Of a DNA stretch of 64,000 bases, positions 3,317-23,244 are shown piece by piece. Numbering within the stretch: the first letter of the stretch is position 1; the number at the start of each line of letters is the position of its first letter. Source of the DNA: a virus (Duplodnaviria; Caudoviricetes). Made by a program: the position numbers and the translations under genes. The notes beneath the pieces were generated by a model. The model searched no databases. It saw only the letters and a list, made by a program, of their open reading frames with translations, and was not told the origin of the DNA. The stretch lies in IMG/VR virus record IMGVR_UViG_3300020576_002081, positions 1 through 64,000 of that record; one strand, given 5' to 3'.

Positions 3317-4117
3317 GTGATGGTTTTATTTAAATACCGATTTATGAAAAAATTTATAATTGCAAAAAAAATAGGAGCAGGTAGCCATTATTTTATTTCA
3401 GATACTGAAGCTTTCAATCATGCTGATAAAGATATATCATATTATCTTTTAAAATTAAATTATTCACAGTATAATGTGGGGGTTTATAATATTAGTGTAG
3501 AAAGTCAAAATCTTATTGACTTACCTAGCTTTCAACAACATTTTAATTCTAGATTTATATATAATGAAGAATTAATTAAAGATACTAATAATTTATTAAA
3601 TTCTATTAATTTTAGTTCTACTTTTACAGATTCAGAAATTATTGATATTTTAGCTCATGATATTATTTCTTATCCTAATAAATTTAATGAACTAATTACA
3701 TTATTTAATAAAAAATCATATGATATAAATACATATGAAGGTCGAAATGAAAATTCTGATGTATTTAGTCATTATTTAAAAATTCATTGGTCAAGAGGTA
3801 GTGGTCTTTCTAAGAATAAAATTAATGAATATATTAGCTTTTTTTATCAGTATTATTCTAATTTTTATAGCATAATTAAATATCAACAAAATATATTAGT
3901 TATAAATACAATTTTAAATAATCCTATATCAGAAAAATATAATGATATTAATGGTGTTGATAAAAATAAAGAATCAGTTAAAAGTGAAAACATTACATTT
4001 AAGAATATTAAACAAATATTATACGATAAATTTGATAGGGATGATATAAAAGAAATAGTTGATTGCTTAGAAAAAGAACTAAGTAAGTACGAAAATAAAG
4101 TTGGCGAAACAAAATAG
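3317..4117 (+). CDS. Hypothetical protein (start probably the downstream ATG, MKKFII)
   Basis: Long ORF; C-terminal motif shared with 1872..2363. Confidence 0.75.
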   Translation: MMVLFKYRFMKKFIIAKKIGAGSHYFISDTEAFNHADKDISYYLLKLNYSQYNVGVYNISVESQNLIDLPSFQQHFNSRFIYNEELIKDTNNLLNSINFSSTFTDSEIIDILAHDIISYPNKFNELITLFNKKSYDINTYEGRNENSDVFSHYLKIHWSRGSGLSKNKINEYISFFYQYYSNFYSIIKYQQNILVINTILNNPISEKYNDINGVDKNKESVKSENITFKNIKQILYDKFDRDDIKEIVDCLEKELSKYENKVGETK

Positions 4118-5249
4118 AAATCTTTGGGTATATGATATTGAAACATTAAAATCATGTTTTACATATACTGGTTTAAATGTAGATACCCAAGAAGTAGTAC
4201 AATTTGTATTACATGAAAAAGTTAATAATCTAGACTCATTAATGAATCATTTGAATACTTGTAAAGGTCAAATAGGTTTTAATAATGTAAATTTTGATTA
4301 TCCTATAATTCATAGGTTAATGAATAATTATAAAAATGGTTATTTTAAGAACGTTCCTGCAGAAGATATTGTAAGATTAATTTATGATGATGCTCAACGT
4401 TTAATTGAAGAACAGAATTTAAAAACAGGATTTAATAGTATTATATCAATATCCTTAAATGAAGTATTAATACCACAATTAGATTTATACAAAATATGGC
4501 ACTATAACAATAAAGCAAGGTCTACAAGCTTAAAAGCTTTAGAAATAAGCATGAATTTTCATAATGTTATGGAAATGTCTATTGGTCATGACCAAGAAAA
4601 CATACCTCATGAAGCTGTAGAATCAATATTAGAGTACAATTTGAATGATGTTTTAGCAACTTTTGAATTTTACAAAAGGTCTATTGAAAAAATAAACTTA
4701 AGGAAATCTTTGAGTGAAAAATTCAATATACCTTGTTTAAATTGGTCTGATAGTAAAATAGGTGAACAATTGATTTTAAAGCTTTATTGTGATAAAACTG
4801 GTAGTAAGCCTTATGAAGTTAAAAAACTACGCTCAAATCGCTCAAAAATAGCTTTAAATGATGTTATATTACCTAACATTCATTTTGAATCATCAAATTT
4901 CCAAAAAGTATTAAATTATTTTAAATCTAAAGAAATAACTGAAACTAAAGGTAGTATAGAATACTCTGTTTTACATAAAGGTTTTAAGTATGATTATGGT
5001 ACAGGTGGAATACATGGATGTATTAAATCTGGAATTTATGAATCAGATGATGATTATGTGATTATTGATGCGGATGTGGCCAGCCTATATCCCAGTTTAG
5101 CTATAACTAATAACTTTTACATAGACCATTTAGGTCAAGAATTTGTAAATGTATATCAAGAAATAATTAATTTACGTTTAAAAGCTAAATCTGAAGGCAA
5201 TTCCGTATTATCTGATGGATTTAAATTAGCTGCTAATAGCGTTTATGGT
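4101..5249 (+). CDS. polB: Family B DNA polymerase, exon 1 (3'-5' exonuclease plus motifs A and B)
   Basis: YDIET (ExoI), FNNVNFD (ExoII), YNLND (ExoIII), DADVASLYPS (motif A), KLAANSVYG (motif B) at the exon end. Confidence 0.93.
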
Positions 5250-5622
5250 TGAAAAATAATTAAAAATAAATTTGCATAATAAAAGCTTATATTTTAGTTA
5301 TAAGCCACTTCATCAAGTAATTGATGCTGAAAAATTGGATAAATTCGGTGAAACTCCAGAAATGGACAATACCGAGCCAACTATTAATTTAAATAATTAA
5401 TAAAGGTGTAACGACTAGATATTGAAACTAAATAATAAAAGGCATTGGTCAAATCCAATCTCATGTAGTATAACTCGAAGTACAGTTATTATTTAGAATA
5501 TAATATATCCACGAACATCCAACATCCTATAGTCTTTAGGATGAAGATATAGTCTGAACTGCAACTATAATAATGTGAAATTGCAGAATTATAAGATAAA
5601 GAGCTTATAAGATAACAAATTG
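5250..5622 (+). mobile_element. Group I intron without ORF (373 nt) in polB
   Basis: Exon ends in U, intron ends in G. Core AATTCGGTGAAACTCC...ATACCGAG, AACGACTAG...GATATAGTCTGAAC. Splicing restores SVYG|KSND in frame. Confidence 0.92.
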
Positions 5623-6393
5623 AAATCTAACGATATTAATAGCTTTTTATATGATCCACAATTTACAATGGCTATTACAGTTAATGGTCAATTATTATTA
5701 AGCATGTTGGCTGATTGGATTACTGATAGTATTGAAGACTTAACTGTTTTACAAATTAATACTGATGGTATAACTGTTAGAATTAATAAAAAATACGTTG
5801 ATTCTTATTACAAAATCTGTAAAGAATGGCAAAATGCTACTAAATTAACTTTAGAATATGTTGAATATTCTAAAATGATAATAGGTGATGTTAATAATTA
5901 TATTGCTGTAACAACTAATAGTAAGATTAAATCTAAAGGTAGATTTGAAGTTAATAAAGTAGTTGGTTCAGAACCTGCTTATCATAAAGATAATTCGTTT
6001 AGAATCGTTCCTTTAGCTTTACAAGAATATTTTGTTAATTGTGTACCTGTTGAAAAAACAATAGCTGAACATACTAATATATATGATTTTTGTGGTAGAC
6101 AAAAGTTTAGAGGTAAAGATTATGGTGCTATAAGATTTATTAATGAAGATAAGATAATTGAAGAAAAACAACAAAAAAACGTTAGATATTACATATCTAA
6201 TAAAGGGTTTAGTTTCATAAAACATTATGAAAAAGGAACTCAAGAAATAATTAATAAAGGATTTCAAGTAATAATATTTAATAAGTTTATTGGAAAAGAG
6301 ATTGATGAGTATAATATAAATTATGATTTTTATATTAAAGAATGTTATAAAGAGATAAATATGATAATAAATAAACAATTAAGTATGTTTTAA
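5623..6393 (+). CDS. polB: Family B DNA polymerase, exon 2
   Basis: GQLLL and INTDG (motif C), VNNY, KGRF. In frame with exon 1 after splicing. Confidence 0.93.
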   Translation, partial: KSNDINSFLYDPQFTMAITVNGQLLLSMLADWITDSIEDLTVLQINTDGITVRINKKYVDSYYKICKEWQNATKLTLEYVEYSKMIIGDVNNYIAVTTNSKIKSKGRFEVNKVVGSEPAYHKDNSFRIVPLALQEYFVNCVPVEKTIAEHTNIYDFCGRQKFRGKDYGAIRFINEDKIIEEKQQKNVRYYISNKGFSFIKHYEKGTQEIINKGFQVIIFNKFIGKEIDEYNINYDFYIKECYKEINMIINKQLSMF

Positions 6394-7541
6394 TGGCAAC
6401 GTCGTATATAGAACCAGATCCTTTCGCAAAGTATATGAGAGTAAAAAAACTCGTGGGTTTTGAATATGAACCAATAGTTGATGCTAAAGAGGATAAAGAA
6501 AAAATAGAAAATAAAAAATTAATTAAAGATTTTATAAGTGATTTTAAAAAATATGAACTTACTTTTGGTGAATTAAACTATGAATCTAAACCACTTAGTA
6601 AAAGAAAAAGATTTCCAAGAAATACTACAAGAATTCCTGAATCAGGATTAAGGTTTTCTCAAATTTATTATGGTTATGATGGTAATAAACTTTCTACAGA
6701 TAAAAATGAAATTCAAGAAACAATTTTAGGTATACAATTTCTTGCTAAAAATAATTATTATGTTTTAAAATTAGAACCTAAAAGTTTTGATGATAATAGT
6801 TATAGATATAATTTTGTATCTAAAATTAAACGTCCTGTTATAGGTAATGCAATATCTATAACAGGTAATAGTAGTATTACAAGAGTTATTGAAAAATATT
6901 ATTTTGTTAAAATTAAAAATTACAAATTATCATCTAAATTATTTAGCTATTCTTCAATCAAGAAGTCTATGTTCATAAGTAATTCTTTTGATGAAACTTA
7001 TGAACAAGTTAAAAGAGATAATCAATCTCTTACTGAACAACAAGTTTTAGATTTAGCTCATAAAGCTAAACGAAAAAAATATGTAATTAACAAAATACAT
7101 TTTAATCATCTTTGTAAAAAGGATAATATTATTAGAGATGTTGTTGAAATTTTAGATAAAGAATCTGGTAGAAATGTTAAGTTTGCTTTTGAAGATGTTG
7201 AGTTTATTAAACCTGATTTTGATAGTTTAAGTAAATGTGTAAATCCTCCTAAGAAAAAAGAAAAAATTGATATTGGTACTTTAGTAACTATTAAAAATGT
7301 AAAACAATCATTAGCTAAAACAGATTATGTATATACTGTTAAAGAATTATTAAAGACTGATGATGAAGGATTAATCAGATTGGCTGTGATTTATGATGAA
7401 GATTTGAAAAAATTAATAACTGTTAAATTTAAAAATTTAAAAAAATATGACCCTCCTAAAAAGAAAGCCGTTAAATCAAAAAAAGATGTTGAAAAACTCT
7501 CAGAAGATTTCATCACAGATGGTTCAGGACTTCCGTGGTAA
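6393..7541 (+). CDS. Hypothetical protein (382 aa, basic)
   Basis: Long ORF coupled to the polB stop (TAATG). Confidence 0.8.
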   Translation: MATSYIEPDPFAKYMRVKKLVGFEYEPIVDAKEDKEKIENKKLIKDFISDFKKYELTFGELNYESKPLSKRKRFPRNTTRIPESGLRFSQIYYGYDGNKLSTDKNEIQETILGIQFLAKNNYYVLKLEPKSFDDNSYRYNFVSKIKRPVIGNAISITGNSSITRVIEKYYFVKIKNYKLSSKLFSYSSIKKSMFISNSFDETYEQVKRDNQSLTEQQVLDLAHKAKRKKYVINKIHFNHLCKKDNIIRDVVEILDKESGRNVKFAFEDVEFIKPDFDSLSKCVNPPKKKEKIDIGTLVTIKNVKQSLAKTDYVYTVKELLKTDDEGLIRLAVIYDEDLKKLITVKFKNLKKYDPPKKKAVKSKKDVEKLSEDFITDGSGLPW

Positions 7542-8403
7542 TTCAATTAAAAAAAGTAAAATAACTAGATTTAGAACACTTGTTTTAACAAGACATCCTA
7601 GTCATTTCCCTTTACGTGAAAGATTACCTTTATTACCTTTTAGAAGTATAGTTAGATTAGGTAGTACTACTGTTAGAAATGATAAACAACGTGTTGAATG
7701 TAATAGTGTACAATCAGTTAAAAATAGTTCTAGTAAACTTCTAATGAAACAATGTTTTACTAAAGCAGGAGTTAAAACTGCTGATTGGTTTACATATGCA
7801 GGCGGTGGATTTGTCCAACACACTAATGGTATGATTAACAGAGGAATTATGACTGCTGATTTACCATACCCAATCATCTGTAAATCATTACATGGTTCAC
7901 GTGGGGAAGGTAATTCATTAGTTAAAAATCAACAAGAATTAGAAGCATGGATGAGAGGTAAAACACTTAGTAATTATATATTTGAAAAATATTATAGTTA
8001 TACTAGAGAATATCGTTTACATGTAACCAAAGATGGTTGTTTTTACACTTGTCGTAAAATGTTAAAACGTGATACTCCAGAAGATAAAAAGTTTCAAAGA
8101 CATGATGATAATTGTGTTTGGCTTATGGAAAATAATCCAGATTTTGACAAACCTGTTAATTGGAATGATATTGTCAAAGATTGTGTTAGATCTTTACACT
8201 CTTTAGGTTTAGATATAGCTGGATTTGATGTTAAAGTTCAATCTGCTAGAGATGCTAAAGGTAATTTAAGAAATATTTGTGAATGGATTGTAATTGAAAG
8301 TTGTTCAGCACCATCATTTGGTGAAACAACTCTGGAAAAATATCTTTTAGAAATACCTAAAGTTTTAAACAACAAATGGAAAATGAACCAAGCGCGAGTA
8401 TAA
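7519..8403 (+). CDS. ATP-grasp ligase (RimK/phiEco32-like)
   Basis: PIICKSLHGSRGEGNSLV, FEKYY..TREYRLHV, DIAGFDV, VIESCSAPS. Likely ATG at 7519 rather than the ORF-track start 7447. Confidence 0.85.
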   Translation: MVQDFRGNSIKKSKITRFRTLVLTRHPSHFPLRERLPLLPFRSIVRLGSTTVRNDKQRVECNSVQSVKNSSSKLLMKQCFTKAGVKTADWFTYAGGGFVQHTNGMINRGIMTADLPYPIICKSLHGSRGEGNSLVKNQQELEAWMRGKTLSNYIFEKYYSYTREYRLHVTKDGCFYTCRKMLKRDTPEDKKFQRHDDNCVWLMENNPDFDKPVNWNDIVKDCVRSLHSLGLDIAGFDVKVQSARDAKGNLRNICEWIVIESCSAPSFGETTLEKYLLEIPKVLNNKWKMNQARV

Positions 8404-9074
8404 GCCATTATACCATAGATGAACTACTTAATGATGGTAAAAAATCAAAAAAAGAAGTAATTGATTATGAAGATAAATCATTAAAAGAGTTGAATAATAT
8501 GCTTAAAAATAGATATTATATAAGAGCATTTGCTTATAAACCTATTGCTGATGATTTAAAAAGCATAATTGAAACATACTATAATAAATTTATGAATGAT
8601 TATCTTAAAGATAAACTTTTTAAAGATGATTATATTTTGTATTTTAATACAAAAGTTAGATCTGGAGAAGATAAACTATCTCATTTTTTAGACTTAGTGT
8701 TTGAGATTAATCTTTCAAAAAGTCCTATGAATAAAGATCAAAAAATTAATTTATTTAGCAGAGATATAGTATGTTCTATTGATTTTAGAATTACAGAGCT
8801 TTTTGGTAATTGTTCTACAGCAGTATTTAATAATTTAACAATAAGTCAAACTTTACAACATAATGTAATATCATTATTTGCTGAAGCAAATTTAAAGTTT
8901 GTTATAGACTTGTGTAAAATTACTAATTATAGTAATTTATTATATACAGTTAGTAGTGAACATGTAACTAATAAAATATTAGAAGAAAAATTGATTTTAG
9001 AAGATTTTAAAAATATAGATTCGTTTAAAAATAAAAGAGGTGGTGATATAAAATTCTATTCTAAAATAATATAA
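8376..9074 (+). CDS. Hypothetical protein, paralog family with 28757 and 34563 (possible GNAT-like fold)
   Basis: DFRITELFGNCS...FKNKRGGDIKFY pattern. Confidence 0.7.
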   Translation: MENEPSASISHYTIDELLNDGKKSKKEVIDYEDKSLKELNNMLKNRYYIRAFAYKPIADDLKSIIETYYNKFMNDYLKDKLFKDDYILYFNTKVRSGEDKLSHFLDLVFEINLSKSPMNKDQKINLFSRDIVCSIDFRITELFGNCSTAVFNNLTISQTLQHNVISLFAEANLKFVIDLCKITNYSNLLYTVSSEHVTNKILEEKLILEDFKNIDSFKNKRGGDIKFYSKII

Positions 9075-9075
9075 T

Positions 9076-9891
9076 ATGAACAATAATAAAATTAAAAATT
9101 TCCTATTAGGAACAGATCCTGAAATGTTTCTTTATTCTGAAGAACAACAAAAAGTTATACCTGTATGTGGTTTAGTTGGTGGTACTAAAAAAGATCCATT
9201 ACCAATAAGTGATATTAAAGGTTTTAGTTTACAAGAAGATAATGTGGCTTTAGAGTTTACAATACCTCCTGTAGGAAATATTGAAGATTGGGTAAATAAT
9301 ATTAATTTCGTTAAAAATTACGCATCTGAAACAGTACTTAAACCTAAAAATTTGATACCTCTTTATGTAGCTTCAGCTAGATTTGCTGAAGAAGATTTAC
9401 AAACAGAACAAGCACAACATATGGGTTGTGATGTATCATATAATGCTTGGACATTCCAACCGCATGAGGTAGACAGATCAGATTTCAATTTAAGAACTAC
9501 AGGTATGCATATACATGTAGGTTACGATAATCCTGATCCAGAAACTTCATTAGAGATCATTAGAGCTATGGATTTGTTCTTAGGAGTACCAAGTGTTATT
9601 TTAGATCCAGATGTCGAGAGAAGGAAAATGTATGGTAAAGCTGGTGACTATAGACTTAAGAGCTATGGTGTAGAATATAGAGTTTTATCAGGTTACTTTT
9701 TAAATAATGATGAACTCTTAAAATGGGTTTATCAAAACACTATTGCAGCTATTAATTTTGTTAATGAAGGTGGTATTATAACTAATCCACAAGAAATTAT
9801 TGATACAATTGATAATTGTAATAAAAATTCAGCCTTTGAAATCATGGACGATTACAGGGTAGCTATTATTAATTACGAAAAAACAATTTAA
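9076..9891 (+). CDS. phiEco32-like COOH-NH2 ligase type 2
   Basis: GTDPEMF, QEDNVALEF, GCDVSYNAW, RTTGMHIHVGY, RRKMYGKAG..R...YGVEYRVLS. Confidence 0.9.
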   Translation: MNNNKIKNFLLGTDPEMFLYSEEQQKVIPVCGLVGGTKKDPLPISDIKGFSLQEDNVALEFTIPPVGNIEDWVNNINFVKNYASETVLKPKNLIPLYVASARFAEEDLQTEQAQHMGCDVSYNAWTFQPHEVDRSDFNLRTTGMHIHVGYDNPDPETSLEIIRAMDLFLGVPSVILDPDVERRKMYGKAGDYRLKSYGVEYRVLSGYFLNNDELLKWVYQNTIAAINFVNEGGIITNPQEIIDTIDNCNKNSAFEIMDDYRVAIINYEKTI

Positions 9892-9893
9892 AA

Positions 9894-11411
9894 ATGTGTG
9901 GACAATTAGGTTATTCAGGAAAAGAACCGTGTGATATTGAAAAAATAAAGATATTACTATTATGGAATTCACTTGAAAGAGGAGAAGATTCTACAGGTTT
10001 ATATAGTCCTGAAAATGGATTAATAAAAACAATTAAAAAAGGTGCTGATTTTATTATTGATAATGAAATTAAACCAGATTTAATAATGATGGCTCATGCT
10101 AGAGCTAAAACAATAGGAGCCGCTTCTGCTAATAATGCACATCCTTTTAAAAGAGGTAATTGGATTTTACAGCATAATGGTACTTTATCAAACTATTGGG
10201 ATTTAAGAGTAAAATATAATCTTGATTTTAAAGAATATGATGTAGATAGTGATATTTTATGTGGTTCTTTAAATGCTAAGGATGATCTTAAAGTTCTTAA
10301 AGAAATAAATGGACCAGCAGCAGTATTAATTACTAACACTGAACGTCCTAATATTTTAATTGCTTTTAGAAATTCTCTTAGACCACTTTATAGAGGTTTA
10401 ATTAATGGAAACATGTATATATCATCTATTGAAAATTCATTAAAATTAATAGGTTGTACTAAAATTAAAGAATTTAAGGAAGATACAATATATTATATTA
10501 TTGATGGTAAGATAGTTAATACTGTTACAATTAAAAACACTCCTTATGCAAAGAATTATATCAACAATACAAATATTAGAGCTAGTATAAGTCATACTGG
10601 TTATGAATGGGGTCTTAATTGTTGGCTTAGACCAACAAGTTCAATGTGTATAAGTGGACTTGATTTAAAACCAAATTTATATTATTATGTTAAAGAGTTA
10701 CTGGATGTTAATAATTATAAACAATACATTATTTATGATCCTGTTACAAAAAAAGAAGTAAGTATTTATTATGGTAATTTCTTAGCTGAAGATTTGATTT
10801 ATAAAAATACTCTTGTTAAAACTCTTGATGATATTTATTTTAAATCAGATAATAAATTAGCTTTGAAAAAAGGTGAAATTTGTCTTGTTGATACGGTATA
10901 TGAAGATGAAACAATTTCTTTATCTAATCCAAATACAAATGTACAATTAGTAACTTTACATAAAAGATTTATCGTAGCTTTAACAAGAGAAGAAGCTTTA
11001 GAATTTAATAATAAAAGTTCTACTGTTGAATCTGAGAATGAAAATTATGAAAAATTATTATTTGATTTTGAAAAAGATGCACAAATAGATTATACTGTTG
11101 ATGATTCAGATTCTGATAGTGAACATGAAGCTGCTAATAATTTACCTATAGTAGTAAATAACGGAATTGAAAGATTACCTTTTGATACGGATGATGAACA
11201 ATCGGATGATGATGAACAAACTGAAGAAGTAGAAGATGATGATATTACAAAATTTTATGATTTTATTAAAAAACAAACTGAAGAATTAAATGAACTTTAT
11301 ATTTTAACAAAACATGAAGATTTAGAACAAAGTTTGAAAAATAAAATAGCAAGTTTATTATCAGAATCTAATACTGTATTAGACAAAATAACAACCGTTT
11401 TAACAGACTAA
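9894..11411 (+). CDS. Class II (Ntn) glutamine amidotransferase with C-terminal extension and acidic tract
   Basis: N-terminal MCG (catalytic Cys2), RG.DSTG, HARAKT.G, NAHPF, HNGT, DSD. Confidence 0.88.
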   Translation: MCGQLGYSGKEPCDIEKIKILLLWNSLERGEDSTGLYSPENGLIKTIKKGADFIIDNEIKPDLIMMAHARAKTIGAASANNAHPFKRGNWILQHNGTLSNYWDLRVKYNLDFKEYDVDSDILCGSLNAKDDLKVLKEINGPAAVLITNTERPNILIAFRNSLRPLYRGLINGNMYISSIENSLKLIGCTKIKEFKEDTIYYIIDGKIVNTVTIKNTPYAKNYINNTNIRASISHTGYEWGLNCWLRPTSSMCISGLDLKPNLYYYVKELLDVNNYKQYIIYDPVTKKEVSIYYGNFLAEDLIYKNTLVKTLDDIYFKSDNKLALKKGEICLVDTVYEDETISLSNPNTNVQLVTLHKRFIVALTREEALEFNNKSSTVESENENYEKLLFDFEKDAQIDYTVDDSDSDSEHEAANNLPIVVNNGIERLPFDTDDEQSDDDEQTEEVEDDDITKFYDFIKKQTEELNELYILTKHEDLEQSLKNKIASLLSESNTVLDKITTVLTD

Positions 11412-11413
11412 AA

Positions 11414-13459
11414 ATGCCCGATAATAATGAAAATACGAATGATAATAGGACGTTGGTAACTAATGTTGCTACCAATGTAACTTTACAAGATTTTGTTGAT
11501 GCTCTTGAAGGAATTAGAGTTGATCTTAGTCAACCAGTAAATCTGAGTGTAAGTATAGATGATCTTGATACTGCTCCAGCAATAGAACAACCAGCCTCTG
11601 ATAGAGAAGTGATTATTGAAAATTTAAATATAGATTACACATTTGATAGTTCTACTGAATTAACATTATCTTTATATCACCACTTAAGACTTCTTCTTTT
11701 AAGAGTTATAGAAAATGGTTATGGTAATAGATTTGAGTCAATAGAATGTCCTTCAAGAAGAACTTATAAAATTTTAAGAGTTTTAGTTAGTCCCGATAGT
11801 GAACTTGCTGATGTAACTTTTAGATATATAGGAGAAGCTATTATACAAAGACCCCAGTATACAGTTCATTTAGGTAATCAAAGGCAACCAGCTGTTTATA
11901 GATTTGCACGTTCTGATTATTTCTACGTATCAGGTGGTTGGGCAATAAATAGACAAGCTGTTCGTGAAGCTAATAATGATGATGAATTAATAGAAAATTT
12001 GAATTATGAAAAAATGAAAAATAATAAAATTAAAGATTTTGAAGGTAATTTAGTAGATAGTACTTTAGCTGTTAATTCTGTTATAGGAGTTATTAATAAA
12101 AAAGATCCTAGATTTTTTGAAGATGCTCTTAAAAGTAATTATTATTTAACAGATGATAAAGAATTAATTAGAGCTTATGGTATATCTGCAAAAACTATAA
12201 TGCTACGTATAAATTTTGATTCTGAAGGTGTTTCACATGGAAATTTAAAAACCCATGAAAGACGTATACATTTAGCTCCTGCAGTTTATAATCCTAAAAA
12301 TCATAGAACTGAATTTTATACCACTTATGAAGAAACATTAACTCCAAATTTTAAAAAGTTTTATGTTGAGGATTTGTATACAGGAAACTTTGTGCATAAA
12401 GAGTATGCTAATATATTACAGCCTTTTGAAAAATCAATGAAAATTAACGGTATTGAGTTTAATCATTCATTTGATAAGTTTCTTAAAGATCACATAGATA
12501 AACCTATGACCTATAAAAGTACATTAGGTAAAAAATATCAATTTGGTATTGAGTTAGAAACTATTAGTGGTTTAGTTCCGATGTATGTTATGAACAAACT
12601 TTATTGTTCGTCTGTACATGATGGTTCATTAAGACAACCAGATGATAATCAAGCTTATGGTAAAGAATATGTTACTTGTGTATTACAAGGTGATGCTGGT
12701 ATGAAAGCTTTACAAAACATTTGTTATGAAACTAGTCTTAGAACATTAGTTAATTATAAATGTGGTGTACATACTCATATATCAGGACCTGTTTTTAATA
12801 AAGAAACTATAGTTTTAATGTATATGGTTTATCAGGCTATACAAAATGAAATATTTACGTTATTACCAATAAGTAGACGTAATAATGAATATTGTAGACC
12901 TATAAAACAAATGAATTTAAAACTTAGTCTTTTAAAACAAGATAGGTATAAATACTTCCCTTTATATTACGCTGATATCATTAAATTTTTATCAGGTACT
13001 ACTAGACCAACTGGTGATGTTAATAAGTCTAAAAATCATCCTAAAGGTAATAAATGTGGTTATGACCATAATACAGCACGATATTGTTGGGTTAATTTTA
13101 TTCCTTCAGTATTTAATACTCGTAAAAACGGTACTTATACTATTGAATTTAGACCAATGAGTGGTACAACGTCTTATTATAAGATTAAAAATTGGACATT
13201 ATTATGTATGGCTTTAGTTGATTTTGTAGAAAATTATAAAAGCTATATATACTCTTTAGATACTTTAGGTAACATTACTTTGGATACAATTGTAGATGTT
13301 GTTTATGGTGCAAAAGGAGCTAAACTTAAAGCTTGGATTAATAAAAGAAAAGATAGGTTTAATATCAATTCTTTACCTAAAGAAGATTTAGATAAAAATG
13401 AAACAATAGATTATTTAGAAGGAGATTTAGAAAAAATTAATTCAATTAAAAATTTATAA
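11414..13459 (+). CDS. Putative amidoligase (Amidoligase_2-like COOH-NH2 ligase) with long N-terminal extension
   Basis: FGIELET, HDGSL, EYVT, CGVHTHI, RYCWVN, TIEFRPMSGT in the C-terminal ~310 aa. Confidence 0.85.
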   Translation: MPDNNENTNDNRTLVTNVATNVTLQDFVDALEGIRVDLSQPVNLSVSIDDLDTAPAIEQPASDREVIIENLNIDYTFDSSTELTLSLYHHLRLLLLRVIENGYGNRFESIECPSRRTYKILRVLVSPDSELADVTFRYIGEAIIQRPQYTVHLGNQRQPAVYRFARSDYFYVSGGWAINRQAVREANNDDELIENLNYEKMKNNKIKDFEGNLVDSTLAVNSVIGVINKKDPRFFEDALKSNYYLTDDKELIRAYGISAKTIMLRINFDSEGVSHGNLKTHERRIHLAPAVYNPKNHRTEFYTTYEETLTPNFKKFYVEDLYTGNFVHKEYANILQPFEKSMKINGIEFNHSFDKFLKDHIDKPMTYKSTLGKKYQFGIELETISGLVPMYVMNKLYCSSVHDGSLRQPDDNQAYGKEYVTCVLQGDAGMKALQNICYETSLRTLVNYKCGVHTHISGPVFNKETIVLMYMVYQAIQNEIFTLLPISRRNNEYCRPIKQMNLKLSLLKQDRYKYFPLYYADIIKFLSGTTRPTGDVNKSKNHPKGNKCGYDHNTARYCWVNFIPSVFNTRKNGTYTIEFRPMSGTTSYYKIKNWTLLCMALVDFVENYKSYIYSLDTLGNITLDTIVDVVYGAKGAKLKAWINKRKDRFNINSLPKEDLDKNETIDYLEGDLEKINSIKNL

Positions 13460-13460
13460 T

Positions 13461-14741
13461 ATGTGTTTAATAAGTATTTGTCCAGTTGGGACAGAAAAGT
13501 TTAATAAAGAAGTAGAAGAATTCATTAGAAGTGGAGCTTCTTGTAATAGACAAGGTAGTGGATTTATGTATAAAAAACATAATGATGCTAGTGTTTATAT
13601 TAAAAAAGGTTATTTTGATATTGATTTATTAATCAAAGATTTAAAAGATTTGAATTTAGGAGTAGATGATGAGTTAGTAATTCATCATAGAACAGCAACT
13701 TCTGGACTTGTTACTGGTGAAAATACTCATCCTTTCATTATAAGTAATAGTGAAGATGAAACTATATTTAAAGGTACTAAAGTAACTAATAAACCAGCAA
13801 TGGTACATAATGGTATGTTTTGGGATATTAAAGAATACATGGCTTTAAATACAGATTTATCAGACACGTATGCTTTTGCTACACACTTGATGCCTTACTT
13901 AATAGATTTATTTGAAAAAGAGCCTGTATTATTTCAAAAATTAACAAATGATATTATAGGAACTGATAAAGTTTGTATTTTATATCCTGAAATAAACAAA
14001 CCTTTAGCTAAGATGGGTAGATTTATTGAAAAAGAAGGATATTATCATTCTAATATGGGCTATTGTTCAAATTATTTTGATAGAGGAGGTGTTGCAAATT
14101 TTACCAGGGCCATTGGGACTAATCTTATAGGTGAAGGATTTAATATTCCTAATTTAGTAAGAACTAAAAAAGATTTTATTCCTGTTGGCCCTAAAAATAA
14201 AGTAAAACATATTGCTGGAGCACCAGATATCTTAGTATCAAGATTAGATCGTACTGTAATTAATATTACTAAATCAAATTACAAAGATTTTCATTACAGA
14301 AAAAAAGCAGACGTTTTAACAAAAAATCCTAATAATATTATTTGGTATACAATGTCTGATTTTGATGAACTTTGTGATCTTCAAATATTAACTGGGTATG
14401 ATTCAAATAGTGTAAAACAAATAAGCTTAGCAATTCCTTTATCAGAAATTCATCGCGATTATTTATTTACACCAGTAAAACCTCTTATTCAATATTATGA
14501 ATGTTTCTTACAAATAGTTTCTAAAAAACCAATGTATTCTAAAAATGCTCTTAAGGATTTAGAAAAACTATTAAGTAAGAATTTCAGTAAAAAAGATGAT
14601 GAGTTTATTAGGTACAAAGCTATTAACAATCAAGAATATAAAAAATCATTAATGATTTACAAAAACTATTTAGAATTATGCAGAGATGCAATAAGTAAAG
14701 CTAAAAAAGATTTTGAACCAGTGTTACAAGCTTTAAATTAA
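13461..14741 (+). CDS. Second class II glutamine amidotransferase
   Basis: MCLI (Cys2), HHRTATSG, NTHPF, HNG, SDT. Confidence 0.85.
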   Translation: MCLISICPVGTEKFNKEVEEFIRSGASCNRQGSGFMYKKHNDASVYIKKGYFDIDLLIKDLKDLNLGVDDELVIHHRTATSGLVTGENTHPFIISNSEDETIFKGTKVTNKPAMVHNGMFWDIKEYMALNTDLSDTYAFATHLMPYLIDLFEKEPVLFQKLTNDIIGTDKVCILYPEINKPLAKMGRFIEKEGYYHSNMGYCSNYFDRGGVANFTRAIGTNLIGEGFNIPNLVRTKKDFIPVGPKNKVKHIAGAPDILVSRLDRTVINITKSNYKDFHYRKKADVLTKNPNNIIWYTMSDFDELCDLQILTGYDSNSVKQISLAIPLSEIHRDYLFTPVKPLIQYYECFLQIVSKKPMYSKNALKDLEKLLSKNFSKKDDEFIRYKAINNQEYKKSLMIYKNYLELCRDAISKAKKDFEPVLQALN

Positions 14742-14990
14742 ATGCTTAGAGAAAAAACAATAAAAAACCATAGTGATATACAAAAGAAATTATATGTATA
14801 TATACCTATGATAATAGATTTGCATGAAAATATAGTTTTATCATATAAAGAAATACAAAAAGAACTGCTTAACAATTTTAATTGTAGCGTTAGCCTTGAT
14901 GATATTAACTTATATTTTGAACCAAATCTAACAGAAGAAACACTAAATACAGAATTATTAACAAATAATTTAGGTATACGTTATGACTAA
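14742..14990 (+). CDS. Hypothetical protein (82 aa)
   Basis: ORF in a coupled operon. Confidence 0.75.
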   Translation: MLREKTIKNHSDIQKKLYVYIPMIIDLHENIVLSYKEIQKELLNNFNCSVSLDDINLYFEPNLTEETLNTELLTNNLGIRYD

Positions 14991-15591
14991 TTATAACATG
15001 AACATTAAAACAATTATTGAACTTGAATTAGGATTTGAAGAATATTTTGTTTTAAAATGTTTATATTATAATGATAAAAACTTGTTAGTAGATTATGTAA
15101 CTAAATGTAAGAAAATAAATACTGATTTATTTAAAGAATTGCACTCTAAAGGATATATTCTTATTAATACTTTAGACTTTACAAAAATATATTATGAGAA
15201 CTTATCTTTGTCTGAGAAAGGTGCTGAAATATTGCAAACAACAGAAGCATCCGAACTTTTAGTTCACACGGCTGACGAACTTAAATCAGGAAGTAATTTC
15301 GAGAGTTTTAGACAACTTTATCCTAATCGCGTAAAACAAGCTTCTGGTTACAGAAACTTACATACGGATTTGAAAAGATGTCGAAAGCTTTATGACAAGT
15401 TATGTATGGAAACATCGCATGATATATTATGTAAGTGTGCTAAACTTTATATTGAAGATTGTCAAAAGAGCAATACTTATATACAGAATTTAGCTACTTG
15501 GTTACATCAAGAAAATTACAAGAATTATTTAGACGATACTTCAGAAAACAACAATAAAACAAACAACTTTACAAATCTTGAAGCAATTTAA
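14983..15591 (+). CDS. Putative replication initiator / helicase-loader-like protein
   Basis: wHTH-like N-terminus, FESFRQLYP...NLATWLHQE C-terminus; lies directly upstream of the helicase. Confidence 0.55.
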   Translation: MTNYNMNIKTIIELELGFEEYFVLKCLYYNDKNLLVDYVTKCKKINTDLFKELHSKGYILINTLDFTKIYYENLSLSEKGAEILQTTEASELLVHTADELKSGSNFESFRQLYPNRVKQASGYRNLHTDLKRCRKLYDKLCMETSHDILCKCAKLYIEDCQKSNTYIQNLATWLHQENYKNYLDDTSENNNKTNNFTNLEAI

Positions 15592-15592
15592 T

Positions 15593-16645
15593 ATGCAAGA
15601 AAGAATCGCCTCTGGTTTAAGTGGCGATTACGAGGGATTGGATAATGGATTAGATAGAATTAATAATTATATTTTTGGTATTCAAAGAGCTTGTTACACT
15701 TTAATAGGTGGATTATCAGGTTCTGCTAAGACTACCTATTTAGATTTCACTATACTTAATGCTATAGAAGATGCTGAAAATAAAGGTATAAATATTAATG
15801 TAATCTATTATTCATGGGAAATAGACGAGGTAACAAAAAGAGCTAATTGGCTATCAGTTTTAATCTACAAAAAGTATGGAATAATAATACCACCTGAGAA
15901 AATTAAAGGTTTTGGTAAAAACAGACTTGCGGAAGATGAACAACAATTAGTTTTTGATGAAATTCCTAATTTAGAAAGAATATTTTCTAAGATTAAGTGG
16001 ATTTGGGAATCACAAAATCCATATGGTATGTATAGATACTGGTTTGATTTTATGACGTCTAGAGGAGAATTGATTAAAGAAAAATATATTGATGAGAATG
16101 ATATTGAAAAAGAAAGACTTGTTAGATGCGATTTACATGATCCTAAAGAATATAATATAGTAGCGGTAGACCACATTGCTTTGGCTAAACTAGAAAGAGG
16201 ATTTACGTTAAAACAAAACATTGATAAGCTTTCTGAATATGCTGTATTTTGTAGAAATTTATTTAAAATGACTTTTATATTTTTACAGCAATTCAATCAA
16301 GGGTTAAGTAGTGTTGAAAGACAAAAATTCAAAGGAGCTGATATTTCTCCACAACAATCAGACTTTAGAGATAGTACTAACCCATATCAAGATTCAGATA
16401 TAGCACTTGGGTTAATGAATGCTTATAAAATGGATATGGAAACATGTCTTGATTATAACATTAATTATAGAGGTGCAGGATATAACTTAAAAGATTCATT
16501 CAGAATGCTTAAAGTTATAAAAAACAGGCTAAGTAGGGATAATATAGCAATAGGCTTATTATTCTTACCCAAATCTGGTAGTTTTAAAGAGTTACCAGAG
16601 CCACAAAACTTAACCCCTAATTGGTTAAGTGAGAACATAGGTTAA
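15593..16645 (+). CDS. dnaB: DnaB-like replicative helicase
   Basis: GGLSGSAKTT (Walker A), YYSWEI, VAVDHI (Walker B), QQFNQ, DFRDS, KNR. Likely ATG at 15593. Confidence 0.88.
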   Translation: MQERIASGLSGDYEGLDNGLDRINNYIFGIQRACYTLIGGLSGSAKTTYLDFTILNAIEDAENKGININVIYYSWEIDEVTKRANWLSVLIYKKYGIIIPPEKIKGFGKNRLAEDEQQLVFDEIPNLERIFSKIKWIWESQNPYGMYRYWFDFMTSRGELIKEKYIDENDIEKERLVRCDLHDPKEYNIVAVDHIALAKLERGFTLKQNIDKLSEYAVFCRNLFKMTFIFLQQFNQGLSSVERQKFKGADISPQQSDFRDSTNPYQDSDIALGLMNAYKMDMETCLDYNINYRGAGYNLKDSFRMLKVIKNRLSRDNIAIGLLFLPKSGSFKELPEPQNLTPNWLSENIG

Positions 16646-16646
16646 A

Positions 16647-17372
16647 ATGGTGCAAGGAATAGAATTACCAATTAAAAAAGTACTACCAAGTACAGTAAAT
16701 CCTAAAAGGTTAGTTATTTATTCAAAGCCTAAGACTGGTAAAACATCAGCAATGGCTGGATTAGATAACAATTTAATATTAGATTTAGAAAAAGGTTCTA
16801 ATTATGTAGAGGCTTTAAAAATTGATGTTAGCTCGCTAGCAGATTTAAAAGCTATTGGAAAGAAGATTAAAGAAAGCGGATACCCTTATAAATTTATTAG
16901 TTTAGATACTGTAACAGTACTAGAAGATATGGTTAAACCTTTAGCCGCAGATCTATATAGAGCTACTCCTATGGGTAAAAATTTTACTGATAATGATGTA
17001 TTAAAATTACCTAATGGTGCTGGTTATATGTACTTAAGAGATGCTTTTTTTCAAGTATTAGATTATGTAGATACGTTAGCACCTCACATTATACTTTCAG
17101 GTCATATTAAAGACAAGCAAGTAGATGATAAAGGAGAGTTAGTTATGGCCGCAAATATTGATTTAACTGGTAAAATTAAATCATTAATATGCAGTCAAGC
17201 AGATGCTATTGGATATATGTTTAGAAGAGGAAATCAGACTATTATTAGCTTTAAATCAAGTGATGATGTAACTTGCGGTGCAAGACCTGAACACTTGAAA
17301 AATCAAGAGATAGTATTAGCTGAAGAGATTGATGGAAAATTGATTACTTATTGGGAGAGAATATATAAATAA
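16647..17372 (+). CDS. AAA_24 / Sak4-like ATPase
   Basis: YSKPKTGKT, LDLEKG, ISLDTVT, SGH, ADAIGY. Confidence 0.88.
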   Translation: MVQGIELPIKKVLPSTVNPKRLVIYSKPKTGKTSAMAGLDNNLILDLEKGSNYVEALKIDVSSLADLKAIGKKIKESGYPYKFISLDTVTVLEDMVKPLAADLYRATPMGKNFTDNDVLKLPNGAGYMYLRDAFFQVLDYVDTLAPHIILSGHIKDKQVDDKGELVMAANIDLTGKIKSLICSQADAIGYMFRRGNQTIISFKSSDDVTCGARPEHLKNQEIVLAEEIDGKLITYWERIYK

Positions 17373-22273: not shown

Positions 22274-23244
22274 AAAAACGCCTGTCCTTATAAAAGCCAT
22301 TTAATTGCTGGAAACTCCTAAAGACTATAAAACTACAACAAAATATGAAAATATATTTGTGAATGTTAAAAATTTTTAGTATATTAATAGTATGAAAGAA
22401 GATACTATATATGGACAATCAGCAGCTAAGCTCCTTCTAAATGGAGAAAGTTCAACGACTATCCCTTCGGGGAGTACTCCTTTAAAAAAGGAGGAAAAGG
22501 TGGCATTATTTAATTTTTATGTTTTAATAGATCCAAGAGATAATAAACCTAAATACATAGGTAGAACAGTAGATCCTAAATCAAGATTAAGAAATCATTT
22601 TTATGAAGCTAAAAAGAATAATAAAACTAAAAAAGAAAGATGGTTAAATTTACTTAATAAATTAGGTAAAATACCAAAAATGAGAATTCTACATTCAAGA
22701 ATTTGTTCAATAACAAAAGCAATTGAATTAGAAAAAAGATTAGTTTTATGGTTTAGTAAATATTATGATTTAAAAAATCAACCTGATAATTATTTAGGTG
22801 CTGTTTTAAATGGAAAAACTGTTCACCAATATAATTTAAAAGGTAAATATTTAGCTAGTTATGCTAATAGCAACCAAGCTTATTTAATTACAGGGATAAA
22901 AGATTGTAATATAGGAAGAGCTTGTAAAAATTTAGGAAAATACACTTGCAAAAGTGCTGGTGGATATTTATGGTCATATGAATTATATGATTCATATCCT
23001 TATAAATATAATGATAATGTTAAAGATTTTACAGGAAAACCTGTACAAATGTTTTCTAAAAATTTTGAATTCATAAAAGAATTTAAAACTGCTAGATTAG
23101 CATCTGTTGAAACAGGAATTTCTTGGAAATTAATATCTTCTTGTTGTATAAAAAAACATATTCCTCGTAAAAGTAATTTTATTTGGAGATTTAAATAATA
23201 TGATATAGTCTGACTATATTAGAAATAATATAGATTTTGCATCG
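22274..23244 (+). mobile_element. Group I intron (971 nt) with homing endonuclease in nrdJ
   Basis: P1: exon AAGGAU pairs with intron GUCCUU (U.G at the splice site). Core AATTGCTGGAAACTCC, ATCAGCAGC, AACGACTA, GATATAGTCTG; terminal G. Splicing gives EG-W-ADAVK. Confidence 0.93.
22392..23198 (+). CDS. Intron-encoded GIY-YIG homing endonuclease with two NUMOD1-like repeats
   Basis: FYVL..PRDNKPKYIGRT...RLRNH, E..L, NQP; KTVHQYNLKG and KPVQMFSKNF repeats. Confidence 0.88.
   Translation: MKEDTIYGQSAAKLLLNGESSTTIPSGSTPLKKEEKVALFNFYVLIDPRDNKPKYIGRTVDPKSRLRNHFYEAKKNNKTKKERWLNLLNKLGKIPKMRILHSRICSITKAIELEKRLVLWFSKYYDLKNQPDNYLGAVLNGKTVHQYNLKGKYLASYANSNQAYLITGIKDCNIGRACKNLGKYTCKSAGGYLWSYELYDSYPYKYNDNVKDFTGKPVQMFSKNFEFIKEFKTARLASVETGISWKLISSCCIKKHIPRKSNFIWRFK

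Follow-up and report, generated by a model that had tools for sequence, protein, structure and literature searches.

What system is encoded by six closely packed genes for ligases and glutamine amidotransferases (GATases) in a phage replication module, and what would it make? This question is raised by the IMG/VR virus record IMGVR_UViG_3300020576_002081 (Duplodnaviria; Caudoviricetes), whose positions 1 to 64,000 constitute the window analyzed here (the whole contig measures 84.9 kb and has a G+C content of 27%). The six genes occupy positions 7519-14741 on the + strand. Judged from its sequence, the region is best explained as a functional, co-transcribed variant of the phiEco32-type amidoligase cassette located in the replication module. 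The cassette kind is already known and is annotated in GenBank relatives, including crAss-like phages. As far as could be found, the new elements are a family of proteins with the fold of GCN5-related N-acetyltransferases (GNAT; represented by open reading frame 2, ORF2), its fusion to the COOH-NH2 ligase, and a second Ntn protein that forms a separate family.

Organization of the cassette

The six cassette genes and the ORF that precedes them are as follows.

7519-8403, + strand: ATP-grasp carboxylate-amine ligase (phrog_2599, 1e-28)
8376-9074, + strand: ORF2, predicted GNAT-fold protein of an undescribed family (AlphaFold model and structure searches)
9076-9891, + strand: COOH-NH2 ligase type 2, a glutamine-synthetase/GCS2-like carboxylate-amine ligase (PF14395, 7.6e-12; phrog_3815, 2.4e-68)
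9894-11411, + strand: primary class II (Ntn) GATase (PF13522, GATase_6, 2.6e-13; NCBIfam GlmS, AsnB, and PurF N-domains)
11414-13459, + strand: Amidoligase_2 (PF12224, 2.9e-11 on residues 407-602; phrog_2443)
13461-14741, + strand: second Ntn class II GATase-like protein, with an Ntn domain at residues 1-203 and its own C-terminal region
6393-7541, + strand: 382-aa Lys-rich ORF of unassigned function, overlapping the ATP-grasp start

A first-pass annotation of the window, made from the letters alone, had described a tight operon of six genes between polB and a helicase. The ORFs, their junctions, and the flanking genes bear this out, with the 382-aa ORF also lying between polB and the cluster, and all six ORFs were present at the coordinates first given. 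The family calls of that annotation, including a tentative GNAT assignment, were likewise right according to Pfam, PHROG, and the structure models. The seven + strand ORFs span 6393-14741, and each overlaps its successor or is followed by it after 0-2 nt. The cassette junctions were, in order, a 28-nt overlap (8376/8403) and gaps of 1, 2, 2, 1, and 0 nt. No terminator-like site was detected on the + strand within 5000-17000, and the promoter scan returned 93 sites against 90 expected.

No transmembrane or hydrophobic segment was predicted in any cassette protein, which excludes membrane or secreted components; all six proteins are predicted to be soluble and cytoplasmic. A known defense-system family was also rejected, as no PADLOC match was obtained.

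Conservation of the cassette across loci

For the comparison, 80 IMG/VR loci were selected with a COOH-NH2 ligase profile within a total of 84 loci, and gene order was mapped with family hidden Markov models (HMMs); the E-values of these searches refer to small local databases. The COOH-NH2 ligase was present in 84/84 loci by design, the class II GATase in 81/84, Amidoligase_2 in 78/84, and the ATP-grasp enzyme in 77/84. Two accessory families were frequent, namely a class I GATase (C26-type, ~210 aa; 62/84) and gamma-glutamyl cyclotransferase (GGCT; 52/84), and one crAss-like group carries two paralogous ~300-aa proteins as accessories. In GenBank, the COOH-NH2 ligase occurs in 318 phage records, covering Pseudomonas, Escherichia, Vibrio, and Aeromonas phages and one Planctomycetes phage as well as phi14:2 and cr108_1. 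The four-family core (ATP-grasp, COOH-NH2 ligase, class II GATase, and Amidoligase_2) recurs in these records and in the 80 IMG/VR loci, and it is annotated in phi14:2, cr108_1, and KBNP1711.

The adjacency counts define which GATase belongs to which ligase. The class II GATase lies next to Amidoligase_2 in 76 of 77 loci, whether before or after it, and touches the COOH-NH2 ligase only where the order is CN-G2-AM (CN, COOH-NH2 ligase; G2, class II GATase; AM, Amidoligase_2). Of the 62 loci with a class I GATase, 50 have it beside the COOH-NH2 ligase, and none has it beside Amidoligase_2. Amidoligase_2 is thus the natural partner of the class II GATase, and the COOH-NH2 ligase that of the class I enzyme. 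In the window, the class II GATase gene at 9894-11411 ends 2 nt ahead of the Amidoligase_2 gene (11414).

The whole six-gene order recurs in the IMG/VR contigs L004-L006, at 47-66% amino-acid identity, and also in the more distant contigs L084, L087, L090, and L092; therefore, the arrangement is not due to chance. A lack of co-occurrence in relatives, which had been named as grounds for rejecting the cassette, was checked, and the genes do co-occur. Additionally, family HMMs found no class I GATase, GGCT, or phi14:2-type uracil-DNA glycosylase (UDG) in any frame of the 84.9-kb contig. Since GGCT and the class I GATase are accessory (52 and 62 of the 84 loci), the contig carries a variant and is still a member of the cassette group. 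The presence of the cassette in a crAss-like phage, initially regarded as notable, proved to be common, as phi14:2, cr108_1, and dozens of ~100-kb IMG/VR contigs carry it. As a separate observation, a peptide deformylase gene (PF01327; L087:1977-2498) is inserted between the COOH-NH2 ligase and class II GATase genes of one contig.

The GNAT-fold protein and its fusion to the COOH-NH2 ligase

ORF2 had no Pfam, NCBIfam, or informative PHROG match, and its assignment comes from structure modeling. The AlphaFold model (pTM 0.69, pLDDT 66.7) gave more than 100 Foldseek matches at E<=1e-3, every one of them GNAT. VIA-align against 48,161 chains placed only GNAT proteins among the top 50 (Z 10.9 to 8.8, over residues ~60-232). 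The model thus points to a GNAT-like protein at the fold level, with moderate confidence outside its core. A degenerate class I GATase, which would occupy the same gene slot, was considered and rejected because ORF2 has no BLAST or profile similarity to that family and adopts the GNAT fold in the model.

A profile search of 1.84 billion representatives retrieved 59 family members, including 30 with E<=1e-10. Two residues, Cys146 and Arg221, are the same throughout the family, and eight others (E141, N145, Y185, Y190, S193, N219, K220, and K230) hardly vary. The acetyl-CoA loop of GNAT enzymes (Q/R-x-x-G-x-G/A, beta4-alpha3) is not conserved in an alignment of 37 family sequences; the corresponding segment varies in length and has no conserved Gly or Arg/Gln. 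None of these 37 members was significant against the Pfam acetyltransferase models, the best E being 0.022 to PF00583 for one member.

The position of ORF2 is fixed. In all nine contexts read (the window, L004-L007, and L084-L087), its gene sits between the ATP-grasp and COOH-NH2 ligase genes, directly upstream of the latter. In three more syntenic contigs (L090, L092, and L093), the GNAT-like domain and the COOH-NH2 ligase form a single reading frame, in which the GNAT-like domain comes first and a short linker joins it to an entire ligase domain. The fusion protein has 492 aa in L090 and 531 aa in L092 and L093 (P0136, five member sequences, six contigs). The N-domains of the fusions aligned with the ORF2 family by hhalign with 93% probability (E 3e-7) and with their motifs in register, and the L090 N-domain matched the family member P0039 by BLASTP at 7e-12. 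This fusion at the orthologous position is the best evidence available in this analysis for joint action of ORF2 and the COOH-NH2 ligase.

Two family members depart from this setting. P0039 (L088:7384-8106), the most distant member, is free-standing; its neighbors are genes for IMPDH, RlaP, an RNA ligase, and an HNH protein, and a fragment of a COOH-NH2 ligase lies ~7 kb away. P0039 retains a canonical R-x-x-G-x-A acetyl-CoA loop (R-G-H-G-I-A), which suggests an ordinary GNAT as the ancestor of the cassette-linked forms. The 161-aa product of L035:5754-6239 is a weak family match (E 2e-7); its gene is flanked by two GGCT genes in a cassette with class I GATases and does not lie beside the COOH-NH2 ligase.

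The two class II GATases

The primary GATase begins with Met-Cys and carries R70, H94-N95-G96, and D118, each of which is shared by 81-82 of 82 sequences. Its glutaminase domain extends from residue 1 to ~215 and is followed by a weakly conserved C-terminal extension with an acidic tract. The coding region for this C-terminus (10900-11411) specifies long low-complexity D/E/S runs and then a helical tail. These extensions vary among loci, and the whole proteins measure 372-721 aa.

The second GATase scored 17.6 bits against PF13230, below the gathering score of 23 bits, and none of the 76 protein clusters of its family carries a precomputed Pfam domain. Its catalytic signature is nevertheless complete. 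The protein also begins with Met-Cys, and C2, R77, N117-G118, and D135 are invariant in nine family members. In GlmS terms, C2 corresponds to the nucleophile, R77 to the Arg for the glutamine carboxylate, N117-G118 to the oxyanion Asn-Gly, and D135 to the Asp for the alpha-amino group. The alignment matches the GFAT motif H-x-R-x-A-T-x-G...HNG, and the family profile searched against PDB returned class II GATases only. In the AlphaFold model, residues 1-203 reached a pLDDT of ~85-95 and superposed on the glutaminase domains of GFAT-1, GlmS, PurF, and EgtC (Foldseek E 6e-7 to 1e-2), whereas the C-terminal region (204-426) was of low confidence; outside its core, the model is moderate in confidence. 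This model supports the Ntn four-layer fold.

A tree built from 82 Ntn domains grouped all ten second GATases in one clade, on a long branch and with 100% SH-aLRT support, apart from all primary GATases, including the copies from the same phages. The tree came from a quick IQ-TREE search, and the long branches make its root and the exact placement of the clade unsure. An HMM built from the primary GATases of other loci alone still recognized the second GATase at 27 bits. The second GATase belongs to a separate and old paralogue clade, and a recent duplication of the primary gene is ruled out by the separate, fully supported long-branch clade. Members are mostly 420-470 aa long, and many lie on 85-96 kb contigs. 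In every context read, the gene is directly behind Amidoligase_2. The second GATase is present together with the C26-type enzyme and GGCT in L091, L009, L047, and L049; this co-occurrence indicates an add-on and excludes a general substitute for the missing C26 and GGCT proteins.

The three ligases

The ATP-grasp ORF opens at 7447, and position 7519 is its third in-frame ATG. The start at 7519 is the likely one because the homologues measure 277-297 aa. Pfam support for the window copy was weak, and the Pfam matches of 22 homologues were spread over ATP-grasp, RimK, CPSase, TTL, and R2K_2. A profile of these 22 homologues matched PurK, PurD, Ddl, and CphA (cyanophycin synthetase) in PDB at 1.9e-6. 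The invariant residues are K73, K122, E164, R166, H168, K180, D232, D237, and E260. The best NCBIfam match, to the RimK family TIGR00768, reached 30.3 bits against a cut-off of 143.4. We classify the predicted product of 7519-8403 as an ATP-grasp enzyme to which no subfamily can be assigned.

The other two ligases exceeded their Pfam gathering scores, with 45.4 versus 25 bits for the COOH-NH2 ligase (PF14395) and 44.1 versus 22 bits for Amidoligase_2 (PF12224). In the COOH-NH2 ligase, E16, E60, H145, R193, E200, and R202 are invariant among 39 to 72 homologues. The catalytic domain of Amidoligase_2 lies at ~380-681, with an invariant series of E, D-G-S, E, H-x-H, R, and E-x-R, and it is preceded by a lineage-specific extension of ~380 aa for which neither Atlas nor profile comparison yielded a known relative. 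Degeneration of the catalytic residues, which would have spoken against a working cassette, was looked for, and the residues proved to be conserved.

Comparison with known systems

The phiEco32-type cassette, reportedly described from genomes in 2009, is one of the closest known systems. In KBNP1711 (gp083-gp091) and in Pseudomonas phages of the LUZ24/PaP3/tf/UFV-P2 type, the same four core families form one block, and the class II GATase lies beside Amidoligase_2, as in the window. The likeness to this type claimed in the first-pass annotation was thus correct, and the literature searched gave no product for these cassettes. The differences concern gene order, which in KBNP1711 is CN-x-AM-G2...AG-GGCT (AG, ATP-grasp), and composition. 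Unlike the window, phiEco32-type cassettes have GGCT and a short Amidoligase_2 (~300-385 aa), and they have no counterpart of the GNAT-fold ORF2 or of the second Ntn paralogue, both of which the window has.

The crAss-like phages phi14:2 (g037-g041) and cr108_1 (Steigviridae) carry another close version. They belong to the same phage order as the window and share the site in the replication module and the AG-CN-G2-AM order. The ATP-grasp protein of the window is 47% identical to that of phi14:2 and 42% to that of cr108_1; for the COOH-NH2 ligase, the values are 36% and 41%, respectively. However, a GGCT gene lies upstream and a UDG gene downstream in phi14:2, whereas cr108_1 carries a pair of paralogous proteins of 300-330 aa and a class I GATase ahead of the COOH-NH2 ligase; both phages lack ORF2 and the second Ntn protein.

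Several characterized enzymes provide gamma-glutamyl precedents for the families involved, namely the GS/GCS2-type ligases PuuA and EgtA, the C26 hydrolase PuuD, the Ntn hydrolase EgtC, the GGCT protein BtrG, and the ATP-grasp enzymes GshB and RimK. In the ergothioneine (EgtA/EgtC) and putrescine (PuuA/PuuD) pathways, a gamma-glutamyl group is attached and then removed. By analogy, the cassette may resemble these pathways in combining GS/GCS2-fold ligases with Ntn (EgtC) or C26 (PuuD) hydrolases, and structural and NCBIfam comparisons of the two window Ntn proteins include EgtC in their matches. There is no sequence-level orthology, however, and the GlmS and PurF matches outscore EgtC.

A further parallel is MurT/GatD, in which an ATP-dependent ligase and a stand-alone glutaminase amidate peptidoglycan glutamate (PMC3267633). 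Both systems would pair a ligase with a separate glutaminase for carboxylate amidation. MurT is a Mur-ligase homologue and GatD a class I GATase, whereas the window pair consists of Amidoligase_2 and a class II glutaminase.

Proposed function and alternative explanations

We tentatively favor a cytoplasmic pathway that builds, amidates, and trims a compound or peptide tail with amide links of the glutamate type, a reading to which we give somewhat less than an even chance. The three ATP-dependent ligases (ATP-grasp, COOH-NH2 ligase type 2, and Amidoligase_2) would act on a single substrate and form amide bonds one after another; the likeliest substrate is a small molecule of the glutamate or gamma-glutamyl type, or else a short peptide tail. 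The primary Ntn GATase would hydrolyze glutamine and pass the ammonia to Amidoligase_2, and this pair would convert a carboxylate into a carboxamide. The GNAT-fold protein would act physically with the COOH-NH2 ligase, either presenting the amine or acyl partner or capping the bond that the ligase forms. The second Ntn protein would more probably trim an intermediate by hydrolyzing a gamma-glutamyl or amide bond, in the manner of EgtC, than serve as a second ammonia donor. Directly observed are the gene families with their intact catalytic signatures, the conserved gene order, the GATase-Amidoligase_2 pairing, and the GNAT-ligase fusion in relatives. The sequence of the steps, the gamma-glutamyl chemistry, and what the GNAT-fold and second Ntn proteins do are inferred. 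The relatives support gamma-glutamyl chemistry in that most of their cassettes hold GGCT (52/84) and the C26-type class I GATase (62/84).

Several points weigh against this proposal. The gamma-glutamyl argument is weaker here than in the relatives because the contig has neither GGCT nor the C26-type enzyme. The second Ntn protein keeps all glutamine-binding residues, with which the ammonia-donor role is equally compatible, and it co-occurs with C26 and GGCT in the four contigs named above. Without the acetyl-CoA loop, ORF2 may be a non-catalytic adaptor. The glutamine-synthetase-like chemistry attributed to the COOH-NH2 ligase and Amidoligase_2 derives from Pfam family definitions, as no relative of solved structure was detectable by sequence for either protein. 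Finally, the literature searched gives no substrate, product, or phenotype for any cassette member, and it contained neither an experimentally shown function of the cassette nor a discussion of it in crAss-like phages.

The probabilities attached to this proposal and to its alternatives overlap in part, and the readings are not exclusive. Modification of a protein, in which the ligases add Glu or other amino acids to a host or phage protein or amidate its carboxylates, is rather unlikely. Its models are RimK acting on ribosomal protein S6, tubulin-tyrosine-ligase-type enzymes, and PafA/Dop, and the GNAT-fold domain would recognize the protein substrate, as protein N-acetyltransferases do. The best named ATP-grasp matches in several members (RimK, TTL, and R2K_2) agree with this view, although all of them are far below the curated cut-offs, and phage ATP-grasp enzymes of the R2K clade have been proposed to modify host proteins (PMC4431377). 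The nearest structural neighbors of ORF2 include RimI, RimJ, RimL, and NatD, which are ribosomal-protein or N-terminal acetyltransferases; such generic GNAT matches, however, do not separate protein from small-molecule acceptors. Moreover, no candidate substrate gene with a conserved tail was seen in or near the cassette, and no small proteins sharing a C-terminal tag were found in the contig genome. The scheme of the first-pass annotation, with one ammonia channel from the primary GATase to the COOH-NH2 ligase and another from the second GATase to Amidoligase_2, is improbable. Both Ntn proteins retain the full glutaminase signature, the second is always directly behind Amidoligase_2, and in most relatives the COOH-NH2 ligase has its own class I GATase neighbor, all of which would suit two channels. 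Yet the adjacency in 76 of 77 loci ties the primary GATase to Amidoligase_2 and not to the COOH-NH2 ligase. Amidoligase_2 would then have two donors, and no donor would remain for the COOH-NH2 ligase, whose partner in this lineage is the GNAT-fold protein, fused to it in relatives.

Editing of cell-wall precursors for superinfection exclusion is quite improbable. Here, the ligases and the GATase would act on peptidoglycan precursors in the cytoplasm and change or amidate their peptide stem. PMC10580990 attributes a prediction of this kind to Iyer et al. 2009, the amidation of iso-glutamate by MurT/GatD is a proven precedent, and the cassette proteins are predicted to share the cytoplasm with the precursors. 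No cassette gene is related to Mur ligases, however, and the cassette lies among early and replication genes, away from lysis or envelope genes. Phages with the cassette also span very different hosts (Pseudomonas, Escherichia, Vibrio, Bacteroidota, and Planctomycetes), and the literature searched offers no experimental support. An envelope target had been among the initial suggestions, and nothing in the analysis favors the envelope above other targets. We assign a similarly low probability to a product chemically unlike that of the classical phiEco32-type cassette, made in this crAss-like branch by a new two-domain amide-forming enzyme together with a separate Ntn paralogue. The GNAT-fold protein with its invariant Cys and the COOH-NH2 ligase, a single polypeptide in some relatives, would constitute this enzyme. 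Its GNAT-like domain would no longer use acetyl-CoA and would instead hold or position an intermediate of the acyl or aminoacyl type, perhaps in thioester linkage to Cys146. Hypermodification of DNA or nucleotides, with amino-acid-type groups placed on a base or nucleotide precursor, is very improbable. The cassette does lie inside the replication module, and a UDG gene directly follows it in 36 of 84 loci, but this adjacency is limited to one crAss-like group and is absent from the window contig. Additionally, no enzyme that could start base modification (hydroxymethylase, kinase, or DpdA-type transglycosylase) was seen among the neighbors scanned.

Genome context

The large terminase matched crAss-like records best among the matches listed, at 34-35% identity, and most of its 161 matches were to crAss-like phages (of Bacteroides, Flavobacterium, and Cellulophaga) or to other Bacteroidota phages. 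The sole DNA-level match of the contig was Cellulophaga phage phi14:2, and the replication module is syntenic with those of phi14:2 and cr108_1. Because of the terminase matches and the phi14:2 match, assignment of the contig to a distant crAss-like lineage is justified, in agreement with the initial label.

PolB-like pieces lie upstream of the cassette (3317-6393) and a DnaB-like helicase (15578-16645), an AAA_24/Sak4-like ATPase, and a Toprim primase lie downstream. The PolB-like gene is split over three ORFs (3317-4117, 4101-5252, and 5620-6393), of which the second has an exonuclease-type RNase_H_2 match and the third matches the C-terminus of phi14:2 PolB. A 367-nt spacer (5253-5619) separates the last two pieces and is missing in L004, where the halves abut; Rfam detected no intron in it. 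In L084, a family A DNA polymerase (4442-6346) replaces the PolB-like genes, next to the same six-gene cassette and downstream helicase. An ORF of 268 aa with a GIY-YIG domain (22392-23198), also in the replication module, probably encodes a homing endonuclease. At the contig start, Rfam recognized a full-length tmRNA (84 bits) between two tRNA genes (sites 422-494, 803-1206, and 1776-1847).

The 382-aa ORF at 6393-7541 had no Pfam, PHROG, NCBIfam, or PADLOC match, and Atlas and profile comparisons gave no lead. In L004-L007, L024, L027, and L084, a homologue likewise precedes the ATP-grasp gene at this position. The ORF is possibly a lineage-specific companion of the cassette, with uncertain membership.

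Implications

The cassette is among the most widespread phage enzyme modules without a known product, the COOH-NH2 ligase alone occurring in the 318 GenBank phage records and in hundreds of metagenomic contigs. The features of this lineage leave the kind of system unchanged, and they add constraints on how it works. The class II GATase goes with Amidoligase_2, and members of the second Ntn family are added repeatedly but not always. Either a class I GATase or a GNAT-fold domain, the latter sometimes fused to the ligase, can be the partner of the COOH-NH2 ligase, which indicates that this ligase works in a two-component unit. The identity of the product would account for a common step of host takeover.

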